Assembly: GCF_003334385.1 (NCBI RefSeq)
Contig: NZ_QOWN01000117.1
Strand: one strand, 5' to 3'
Origin: Escherichia coli
GTDB taxonomy: Bacteria; Pseudomonadota; Gammaproteobacteria; Enterobacterales; Enterobacteriaceae
Length of the DNA stretch: 1,295 bases
Shown here: positions 1-1,295 of the stretch, piece after piece
Layout of the letters: every line of letters begins with the position of its first letter
How positions within the stretch are numbered: the first letter of the stretch is position 1
Translations under genes and position numbers: made by a program
The notes under the pieces: generated by a model
Told to the model about the DNA's origin: nothing
Database searches by the model: none
The model's input: only the letters and a program-made list of their open reading frames with translations

Positions 1-271
1 GTTCAAAGAGGCATACATCAATGCCTTTAACCAGATGGAGAAACAGCTTTCAAATCCCTCTGTACTGAGCGACGTTGCACATAACGCCAGCGTTCTCTAT
101 TCCTACATTTCATCAATTCATCAGGTCTGGCTGCAGCAGCTTTATCCCATGTTGGCAAAAGCCGAATCCCCGCTGGCTGTAAGTCTGTATGACCGCATCA
201 ACGACGCGGCGCTACTGGCCAGTCTCATAAATTTGTCGCTGAACCCTTCAGAGGTAAGGGGGCGCAAATGA
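1..271 (+). CDS. Hypothetical protein, 5'-truncated at the window edge (about 90 C-terminal residues visible)
   Basis: Frame 2 is open from position 2 to the TGA at 269-271. The first in-window ATG (35-37) has no Shine-Dalgarno motif upstream, so the true start is probably upstream of the window. The stop overlaps the next gene's start (ATGA). No family recognised by eye. Confidence 0.6.
   Translation, partial: FKEAYINAFNQMEKQLSNPSVLSDVAHNASVLYSYISSIHQVWLQQLYPMLAKAESPLAVSLYDRINDAALLASLINLSLNPSEVRGRK
256..262 (+). promoter_or_regulatory. Shine-Dalgarno-like ribosome-binding site for the CDS starting at 268
   Basis: AAGGGGG, 5-nt spacer, then ATG; embedded in the 3' end of the upstream gene. 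Confidence 0.6.
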
Positions 272-492
272 TCCGGAATATTTTCAAACGGTTTACCAAT
301 CAGACTTTCCGTTGTCCTCGTCCTGGTCAGTGGTACACCACGCCTGCAGGGCATGTTCTACGTGTCAGCCTGGTTGACCGTGAATGTCAGAAGGTGATTT
401 GTGAACCGCTGGGCCGTAATTACCGCATCAGTATGCCGCTTATAGCCTTTTGCTCCGGAAAAATGTTTAAGCGTCTGGGAGGTGTGGCGTGA
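268..492 (+). CDS. Hypothetical small basic protein (74 aa) with four cysteines; possible nucleic-acid-binding or metal-binding protein
   Basis: ATG at 268-270 lies 5 nt downstream of AAGGGGG (256-262). The ORF runs to TGA at 490-492. By my count it has 13 Arg/Lys against 3 Asp/Glu, with Cys at residues 16, 40, 45 and 62 and His at 29. It overlaps both neighbours by 4 nt. Confidence 0.7.
   Translation: MIRNIFKRFTNQTFRCPRPGQWYTTPAGHVLRVSLVDRECQKVICEPLGRNYRISMPLIAFCSGKMFKRLGGVA
477..482 (+). promoter_or_regulatory. Shine-Dalgarno-like ribosome-binding site for the CDS starting at 489 (GTG)
   Basis: GGGAGG, 6-nt spacer, then GTG; embedded in the 3' end of the upstream gene. Confidence 0.6.
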
Positions 493-788
493 ACTGTTTT
501 CAGTTTGTGTGCGGATGTGCTTTCGATAACCCGATTCAGCGCCTGATTATGTTGCGTGTTTTGATGTCGGGTTCTTCAGACGGTGAAGGCGAGAGAGTTA
601 TTGATCATCAGGTGCTTGCTGATTTCTGCTGTTGTTCTAAGCAAGCGATATTCAGGGAAACCCTGGCACTGGAAAGAGCTGGTTATCTTCATATCCGAAA
701 AATTGCAACGCTTACTATTGATGCAAAAGCCAGACTACAACCTGCGCGTGGCTACACAATTCTCATGCCGCGGAAGGAGGTTGTATGA
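489..788 (+). CDS. Hypothetical 99-aa protein with a helix-turn-helix-like segment and two cysteine clusters; putative small DNA-binding regulator
   Basis: GTG at 489-491 lies 6 nt downstream of GGGAGG (477-482). The ORF ends at TGA 786-788. The internal ATGs at 549 and 564 have no Shine-Dalgarno motif, so the GTG is preferred. Residues about 40-69 (HQVLADFCCCSKQAIFRETLALERAGYLHI) fit a helix-turn-helix pattern. Cys clusters are C-G-C (nt 510-518) and C-C-C (nt 627-635). Confidence 0.65.
   Translation: MNCFQFVCGCAFDNPIQRLIMLRVLMSGSSDGEGERVIDHQVLADFCCCSKQAIFRETLALERAGYLHIRKIATLTIDAKARLQPARGYTILMPRKEVV
774..780 (+). promoter_or_regulatory. Shine-Dalgarno-like ribosome-binding site for the CDS starting at 785
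   Basis: AAGGAGG, 4-nt spacer, then ATG; embedded in the 3' end of the upstream gene. Confidence 0.65.
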
Positions 789-1295
789 GCCGTTACGCCC
801 CCACACCGGAAGTTATGGCTATTGGTCAAATTAATATTTCCGGCAATGTTACACCTGCGAACTGGTGGAAATATATTCGACTACCCAGTGGGCGTCCGGA
901 TGCGACGGCTATCGCTCTGCTTTCAGAGATCGTTTACTGGTACCGCCCGACAGAGGTCAGGGATGAGCACACCGGAGCGTTGCTGGGATATCGCAAGCGT
1001 TTTCAGGGCGACAAACTGCAAAGAAGCTACCAGGCGTTTGCTGAGCAGTTTGGTTTCGGGAAAAGGGAAACCGCAGATGCGCTGAAGCGTCTGCGCGATG
1101 CAGGGTTTATTACTCTGGATTTACGCACGGTGGAAATGCTCGATGGGGTGAAATGCAGCAATATTTTGTTTGTCGGGATCAACCCACAGGCAATTGCGGC
1201 CATCACCACACCTTCTTCTGTTTCGCCAGAAAGTAACAGCAATAATGCAATCAGCGATACAGCTATTACGTTAAAACGGAACACCCCCCGACGTC
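785..1295 (+). CDS. Putative winged-helix DNA-binding protein, possibly a phage/plasmid replication-initiator-like N-terminal domain; 3'-truncated at the window edge
   Basis: ATG at 785-787 lies 4 nt downstream of AAGGAGG (774-780). Frame 2 is open to the end of the window, about 170 codons with no stop. The segment FGKRETADALKRLRDAGFITLDLRTVEMLDGVKCSNILFVG looks like a recognition helix followed by a beta wing. It is followed by a Ser/Asn/Thr-rich low-complexity stretch (TTPSSVSPESNSNNAISDTAIT) typical of an interdomain linker. The functional assignment is by pattern resemblance only. Confidence 0.7.
   Translation, partial: MSRYAPTPEVMAIGQINISGNVTPANWWKYIRLPSGRPDATAIALLSEIVYWYRPTEVRDEHTGALLGYRKRFQGDKLQRSYQAFAEQFGFGKRETADALKRLRDAGFITLDLRTVEMLDGVKCSNILFVGINPQAIAAITTPSSVSPESNSNNAISDTAITLKRNTPRR

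Follow-up and report, generated by a model that had tools for sequence, protein, structure and literature searches.

The stretch of DNA considered here (the window) comprises 1,295 nt of an Escherichia coli contig (NZ_QOWN01000117.1) and carries the 5' part of a gene for a putative phage replication initiator, together with the beginning of a candidate replication origin located in the linker-coding part of that same gene. The window sits in a lambdoid prophage of E. coli, and the chromosome NZ_CM129862 matches it at the best level found in E. coli (99.8% identity, 3 mismatches over the 1295 nt). Two annotated E. coli carrier loci, L001 and L002, were used for gene context, with L002 providing the coordinates of the full gene. 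The first 170 codons of the initiator gene occupy positions 785..1295 (+) and stay open to the window end; the full gene lies at L002:8785-9768 and encodes a protein of 327 aa (L002) or 363 aa (L001), the length gap corresponding to a 12-nt tandem repeat. A strong Shine-Dalgarno sequence, AAGGAGG, can be read at 774..780 (+), 4 nt 5' of the ATG at 785, and this ATG overlaps the stop codon of the upstream open reading frame (ORF) as ATGA. Consecutive ORFs of the window all overlap by 4 nt in this manner (ATGA or GTGA), which suggests translational coupling in the operon. The partial gene proposed at 785-1295 by an initial annotation, made from the letters alone, is thus a real ORF, with thousands of homologues. 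Of 5426 complete E. coli genomes, 220 carry it intact and at full length (94-100% identity), and RefSeq names it 'hypothetical protein' in most E. coli genomes and 'replication protein' in some.

The early-right operon of L001 and L002 begins with genes for a cI-like repressor, a cro-like protein, ymfL and Rha, followed by ORFs of 74 aa and 99 aa and by the initiator gene, which takes the position of O and P in lambda; the earlier suggestion that the window belongs to the replication module of a mobile element is supported by this order. Downstream come a PerC-family gene and genes for a Dam methylase, a LexA-like protein, RusA, KilA-N, DUF968 and Q. At the level of sequence families, the protein matches PHROG 270, 'replication initiation protein', with an E value of 8.5e-76 (aa 2-326 aligned to positions 4-275 of the 383-position profile), and belongs to this family through each of its two domains, which also match when taken separately (N-domain E 2e-19, C-domain E 7e-46). 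The C-domain also matches PHROG 1701, 'DnaD-like helicase loader' (E 2e-35 to 1e-34), and PHROG 26426 ('replication protein'), and there is a weak match to phrog_391, 'replication initiation O-like' (E 9e-8). One search returned 1572 homologue matches, and many database homologues are named 'replication protein'. With the N-domain alone, about 1970 cluster representatives (clusters at 50% identity) are retrieved at E <= 1e-10; isolated phages of Geobacillus, Acinetobacter, Bacillus, Exiguobacterium and Eggerthella encode N-domain homologues at 44-55% identity, which, where annotated, are called DnaD-domain or replication-initiation proteins. Family membership and gene position together make it very probable that the protein is a prophage replication initiator, the identity that the initial annotation had put forward. 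Profile comparison of the full protein supports this identity through PHROG 270 but not through Pfam and NCBIfam, whose scans gave no usable match, the sole Pfam return being a weak HTH_36 match at aa 81-109 (E 0.11).

The architecture of the initiator was modelled with AlphaFold2 (AF2) from a 24-sequence alignment, and secondary structure was assigned by DSSP. According to this model, the initiator is a two-domain protein, with a winged-helix N-domain, a disordered linker of about 68 residues and a small helical C-domain; the layout of winged helix, flexible linker and C-terminal partner domain, first drawn by analogy, is thereby reproduced. The predicted N-terminal winged-helix DNA-binding domain spans aa 1-144 (785..1216 (+)) and consists of helix 40-53, an extra beta hairpin (aa 56-70), helices 82-89 and 93-105, a wing (109-117/123-132) and helix 134-141. 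The helix-turn-helix (HTH) and wing are placed at 1028..1180 (+), aa 82-132, close to the segment at about nt 1022-1190 where the letters alone had suggested them, and the putative recognition helix is aa 93-105. The predicted linker starts at 1217 (1217..1295 (+) within the window) and runs over aa 145-212, 68 residues with a predicted local distance difference test (pLDDT) score below 50; its DNA holds the candidate origin. The low-complexity stretch noted earlier as a probable linker (about nt 1205-1270, aa 141-162) indeed leads into this segment, with a Ser/Asn/Thr/Pro content of 68% versus 19% in aa 1-140. The C-domain, coded beyond the window end, is helical over aa 213-298 in the model.

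Among known structures, the N-domain superposes on the N-domains of DnaD and DnaB (2v79, 5wtn). A Foldseek search of the model against the PDB yielded generic winged-helix matches only, all with E > 0.02, so that the fold alone cannot tell an initiator from a regulator. Sequence searches of the PDB, with the single sequence and with a profile, likewise gave only weak generic HTH matches to regulators, those of the profile search being of the GntR/FadR and AsnC types. Such matches, and the presence of the regulators Rha and PerC among the neighbours, would fit a winged-helix protein that regulates transcription of the early operon or acts as its antirepressor; the evidence from sequence families and gene neighbourhood, however, all points to replication, and a regulatory protein with no part in replication is very improbable.

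Two kinds of repeats were found in the linker-coding DNA. The first is a 16-bp dyad motif, TTACGT-N4-ACGKAA with lineage variants, which occurs in 2-5 copies, 22-23 bp apart, at the same place in relatives. Candidate iteron 1 (1266..1281 (+), TTACGTTAAAACGGAA) is an imperfect dyad and an exact match to the motif; candidate iteron 2 follows 23 bp later in another frame, with its first 7 nt at 1289..1295 (+) and its full sequence, CGACGTCATAACGGAA, at L002:9289-9304. Besides these two E. coli sites, there are five in Yersinia enterocolitica (L003) and three in Yersinia vastinensis (L007), both at 22/23 bp, two scored sites (about four by eye) at 22 bp in Salmonella (L004), and four near-perfect sites (GACGTT..AACGTC) at exactly 22 bp in a Geobacillus phage. 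All motif matches in the 13-kb Y. enterocolitica locus fall inside 105 bp of linker DNA (8 on both strands versus 0.05 expected). The initial annotation had suggested that iterons might lie inside or after the gene, and comparison with relatives supports the former, the iteron-like dyads starting at window position 1266. The spacing is not a multiple of three, and the motif therefore falls in different frames (0, 1, 2 and 0 in the Geobacillus phage, two frames in E. coli and Yersinia), where it encodes unrelated peptides such as TLERQ, DVETS, LRSNV, LRSDV and TLKRN. That the same DNA is read in differing frames into unrelated peptides argues that repetition and constraint belong to the DNA and not to the protein. 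In Yersinia, two iterons together make up a unit of 45 nt (encoding LRSDVTPPTLKRNTP), of which three species have 3, 2 and 1 copies (L003:6449-6583 and the equivalent positions of L007 and L008), and iteron number is therefore polymorphic.

The second kind of repeat consists of tandem 12-mers, ACAGAGAWTACT, which come directly after the dyad repeats, are A-rich and are read as (TEIT)n. Near-identical 12-mer DNA is present in E. coli, Salmonella, Yersinia, Acinetobacter phages, Bacillus and Geobacillus phages, Caldanaerobacter and Syntrophomonas, and at least two units are found about 35 residues after the N-domain in 69 of the best 134 N-domain cluster representatives. Nowhere else in the gene does GC content fall as low as over the 12-mers (0.37), which also show a strong A-over-T skew. 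Units were defined from the peptide alone, TE(I/N)T, and codons were compared at residues identical to the E. coli unit in 9 non-E. coli lineages. The same codon was found in 75 of 77 cases, versus 288 of 749 (38%) at identical N-domain residues of the same lineages (Fisher p 1.6e-26, a value to be read with the caution that units inside one array are not independent observations). Threonine codons are position-specific, with ACA in 25/25 cases at unit position 1 and ACT in 19/21 at position 4 (p 5e-11), and the glutamate codon of the units is GAG in 20/20 cases versus 36% elsewhere in the same genes, where GAA dominates.

Just past the window end, the 12-nt tandem repeat TACAGAGATTAC amounts to 11.7 copies in L001 (L001:9333-9472) versus about 2 in L002 (L002:9333-9356), and gene spans in complete E. 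coli genomes step by 12 nt (984, 996, 1008, 1020 and 1092). This length variation is a variable number tandem repeat (VNTR) inside a replication gene. A full-text literature search for the 12-mer sequences returned unrelated primers only, and a keyword search found no description of this origin type. The product of the 99-aa ORF was considered as a binder of the 12-mers and rejected as a general explanation: Firmicutes loci carry the 12-mers, yet no tblastn match to the 99-aa ORF was obtained there. At the Geobacillus, Acinetobacter and Bacillus phage loci with 12-mers, the annotated upstream ORFs are shorter or absent, the 99-aa ORF itself not having been searched for at these loci.

From this comparative evidence, it is fairly likely that the linker-coding DNA also serves as the phage replication origin. 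Several observations nonetheless weigh against this interpretation. Besides the lack of a usable Pfam or NCBIfam match and the non-independence of units within an array, E. coli has two full dyad sites and one half-site (ATACGC near L002:9311) versus 4-5 sites in relatives; additional iterons sought 22-23 bp either side of the two clear E. coli sites amounted to this half-site, the upstream position giving no match. Within the window alone, the dyad count of one site is not significant (9/200 shuffles reach it), and the N-domain loci L024 and L064 (Eggerthella) show clear repeats of neither kind. We furthermore infer DNA binding, origin activity and the partners of the C-domain alike from sequence comparison. 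Finally, the 12-mers never leave the reading frame and the peptide that they encode is conserved; a role at the protein level is therefore possible.

This last point leads to an alternative in which the protein is a true initiator and the linker repeats matter for the protein only, serving as a disordered spacer or as a short linear motif that slippage has expanded, the origin being located elsewhere, for instance downstream or in an intergenic region. The constant frame of the 12-mers, the conservation of a TE(I/N)T peptide in about half of the family, the slippage-like 12-nt steps in copy number and the presence of only two full dyad sites in E. coli would all be compatible with it. A protein-level role does not, however, account for dyad repeats that are read in two or three frames into unrelated peptides, for a position-specific codon choice in the 12-mers that hardly varies between phyla even though synonymous sites of the flanking domain are saturated, or for repeats that co-segregate with the N-domain when C-domains are swapped. 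As to an origin elsewhere, no further repeat cluster was found in the flanks. Overall, we regard this alternative as unlikely and favour an origin in the linker-coding DNA.

How such an origin would be loaded with helicase is suggested by the genes that follow the initiator. In seven of seven non-E. coli enterobacterial loci (L003-L008 and L011, the last with the 99-aa ORF and an N-domain that is less closely related), the initiator is followed by DnaC-like and DnaB genes; prophages of Yersinia, Salmonella and Pseudocitrobacter show an ORF of about 100 aa, the initiator and then, directly, the DnaC-like loader and the DnaB helicase. Further afield, the N-domain gene precedes a G39P-like loader and a helicase in Geobacillus phage PT9.1, a helicase in Acinetobacter phages qsb1 and IME-AB2, an IstB-like ATPase in Bacillus phage Athena and a DnaA-like 'DNA replication protein' in an Exiguobacterium phage, while all genes beside the N-domain homologue of the Eggerthella phage are unannotated. 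The C-domain is recognizable by the signature FExAWxxYPKR...FVKQAxTFFGP, which occurs across Gamma- and Betaproteobacteria. We infer that it recruits a helicase loader, because a DnaC-like gene directly follows it in about 28 loci examined from these two classes.

In the prophage of the window, a PerC-family (yfdN-like) regulator gene (L002:9765-10259) stands where relatives carry the DnaC-like and DnaB genes. The adjacent helicase or loader gene to which the initial annotation had looked for support is thus found, as loader and/or helicase directly downstream, in annotated non-E. coli relatives and is missing here: the downstream annotation lists no DnaB, DnaC or P-like gene, and tblastn of L001 and L002 revealed no DnaC- or DnaB-like gene, a further point to set against a functional initiator-origin pair. 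Together with the 2-2.5 dyad sites that contrast with 4-5 in relatives, the frameshifted genes nearby in these prophages and a seemingly broken copy in Arsenophonus (two frames, a stop after 75 codons), this absence could indicate a decaying remnant in a defective prophage that no longer supports replication. Such decay is nevertheless improbable, given an ORF kept intact at 94-100% identity in the 220 of 5426 complete genomes, an equally intact 99-aa ORF upstream and operon downstream, and the example of mEp460. This viable phage shares both operon and C-domain, its operon as annotated likewise lacks a helicase or loader, and it shows that a one-gene replication module is compatible with a working phage. 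The C-domain is shared, at 84-97% identity, by phages mEp460, SfV, cdtI and ST64B; the absence of helicase and loader was read in mEp460 only, from its annotation, the replication regions of SfV, cdtI and ST64B being outside the inspection. The genes flanking the PerC-family gene in L001 and L002 carry the names yfdP, yfdQ and yfdR, which we take to be those of the K-12 CPS-53 prophage.

Comparison with mEp460 also delimits the part of the locus that is exchanged between phages. DNA identity to mEp460 stops near window position 485 and resumes near L002:9380, in the part coding for the C-domain, while identity to the cdtI and Stx2c phages is, as with mEp460, seen over window positions 1-484 only. 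The block swapped relative to mEp460 therefore consists of the 99-aa ORF, the N-domain and the repeat-bearing linker; the mEp460 replication gene has instead an HTH_36-type N-domain, linker repeats of its own and no 99-aa ORF. Conversely, the N-domain and linker are joined to a different C-terminus in P0066 and in Firmicutes and phage proteins, and the linker repeats co-segregate with the N-domain across these C-domain swaps. Such a pattern is as expected if the N-domain and its cognate origin stay joined and the recruitment domain adapts to the host or its loader. The linker DNA of mEp460 (L063:3254-3400) contains direct repeats, 3 copies of about 39 nt and 3 of AGAACCAGTCA, and an origin in the linker may therefore be general to both types of cassette.

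The exchanged block begins with the 99-aa ORF (489..788 (+), GTG start), which codes for a stand-alone, initiator-like winged helix of the HTH_36 type with a CCCS motif (phrog_4617, E 2e-29). It is 58-59% identical to upstream ORFs in Yersinia and Salmonella, is matched by tblastn in L001-L008 and L011, and is found directly 5' of this type of initiator, with 58-63% identity, in E. coli, Salmonella, Yersinia, Pseudocitrobacter and Raoultella. Its product resembles the HTH_36-type N-domain of the mEp460 replication protein (BLASTP E 7e-6), both matching phrog_4617. Upstream of it, the window contains the 3' end of Rha (1-271) and the 74-aa ORF (268-492 (+); phrog_1153, E 2e-44), which mEp460, SfV and others have conserved in the same position, after Rha and before the replication gene. 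An ORF of 85 aa on the minus strand inside the initiator gene (1027-1284 (-)) was rejected as most likely a shadow of the coding frame; nothing beyond its listing supports it, no homologue having been sought. In an Arsenophonus endosymbiont (L033:5001-5424), the N-domain match is split into two pieces that lie in different frames, and a stop after 75 codons cuts the ORF short; this copy is probably pseudogenised.

These elements can be assembled into a working model, jointly with which it is quite probable that the ORF codes for the replisome organiser of an E. coli lambdoid prophage, an initiator that binds the origin. The N-domain would bind, probably as a dimer, the 16-bp dyad repeats TTACGT-N4-ACGKAA that lie about two helical turns apart in its own linker DNA. 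The 12-mers, in 2 to about 12 copies, would be a second cis element, most likely the unwinding region or a second site of contact with the initiator. The C-domain would then recruit the helicase-loading machinery; in relatives, a phage DnaC-like loader is encoded directly downstream, and in the prophage of the window the partner is presumably host DnaC-DnaB, because the prophage encodes no loader or helicase. The 99-aa ORF, N-domain and linker/origin would move between phages as one unit that carries origin specificity, the C-domain being a separately exchangeable module.

A broader proposal is more tentative, and we consider it doubtful as a whole: the N-domain, dyad iterons and (ACAGAGAWTACT)n would form a portable origin-plus-specificity cassette, of which the 12-mer is the nearly invariant cis element and more than a repeat in linker-coding sequence. 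Such a cassette may be common to phages of Firmicutes and Gammaproteobacteria, with only the N-domain seen in Actinobacteria. The 12-mer could act as an unwinding or single-strand-contact element that the N-domain reads with its most conserved part, and the number of copies would then tune origin firing. If the cassette reading is true, the 99-aa winged-helix protein that travels with the cassette in Enterobacterales would either bind the origin as a second factor or compete against phages whose initiators are of the HTH_36 type.

The analysis assigns a function to a gene mostly labelled 'hypothetical protein' by RefSeq in E. coli and delineates an extensive N-domain family, with about 1970 clusters at 50% identity, for which there is no Pfam or NCBIfam model. 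It also makes a concrete origin prediction, of about 100 bp inside the gene, that would be useful for the annotation of prophages, for the construction of phage-derived replicons and for understanding the 12-nt length polymorphism of the gene. The overlap of linker-coding sequence and DNA element, conserved across phyla despite saturated synonymous divergence, would be a clean example of dual coding, and the cross-phylum conservation of the 12-mer DNA is the one feature that merits experiment.

That an origin can lie inside the initiator gene is a general principle known from lambda, SPP1 and lactococcal phages. Lambda O consists of an N-terminal DNA-binding domain, a flexible linker and a C-terminal recruitment domain, and ori-lambda, inside the O coding sequence, is made of dyad repeats spaced by about two helical turns and, after them, a stretch richer in A+T. 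The initiator described here resembles lambda O in its lambdoid early-right position, in the succession of its (predicted) DNA-binding domain, linker and recruitment domain, and in having dyad repeats and an A+T-richer stretch in its own gene. It differs in that the protein does not match Pfam Phage_rep_O (PF04492) and is thus no member of that family, and in that a PerC-family gene, instead of a P gene, follows; the repeat sequence is unrelated to that of ori-lambda, and tandem 12-mers replace the A+T-rich block of lambda. When measured as an iteron origin, i.e., at least 3 direct repeats of about 16-22 bp in helical phase beside an A+T-rich region, relatives are clear cases with 4-5 repeats at 22-23 bp, while the E. 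coli copy has 2 full repeats and 1 half-site, then the 12-mers at GC 0.37.

In SPP1, G38P is a non-AAA+ origin-binding protein that hands the loader-helicase complex to the origin (PMC3561973). Gene 38 resembles the E. coli gene in carrying short tandem repeats mid-gene, and the Geobacillus phage with this N-domain resembles the SPP1 system (G38P, oriL, G39P and G40P) in the order of its genes for initiator, G39P-like loader and helicase; loader and helicase genes are, in contrast, absent from the prophage of the window. Direct similarity to G38P is not significant (BLASTP E 0.76 and 0.11, hhalign E 0.13), but the C-terminus of G38P and the present C-domain match the same part of PHROG 1701 (E 2e-11 and 1e-34), a transitive hint of homology. 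As to DnaD-like proteins (Pfam DnaB_2, PF07261), the N-domain is fused to a true DnaB_2 domain in Geobacillus PT9.1 (E 1e-13), and in phages of Bacillus, Exiguobacterium and Acinetobacter, proteins with this N-domain carry the label 'DnaD domain protein'. The C-domain of the E. coli protein, however, belongs to another family, with no DnaB_2 match in Pfam, and its direct comparison with the DnaD-type C-domain is not significant. The replication protein of mEp460, SfV, cdtI and ST64B has the same C-domain in all four phages, and mEp460 has the same operon, with a replication module of a single gene, then a PerC-like gene and Dam; the prophage of the window differs from mEp460 by its alternative cassette of 99-aa ORF, N-domain and linker. 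The locus is, in sum, an uncharacterised member of a well-known kind of system.

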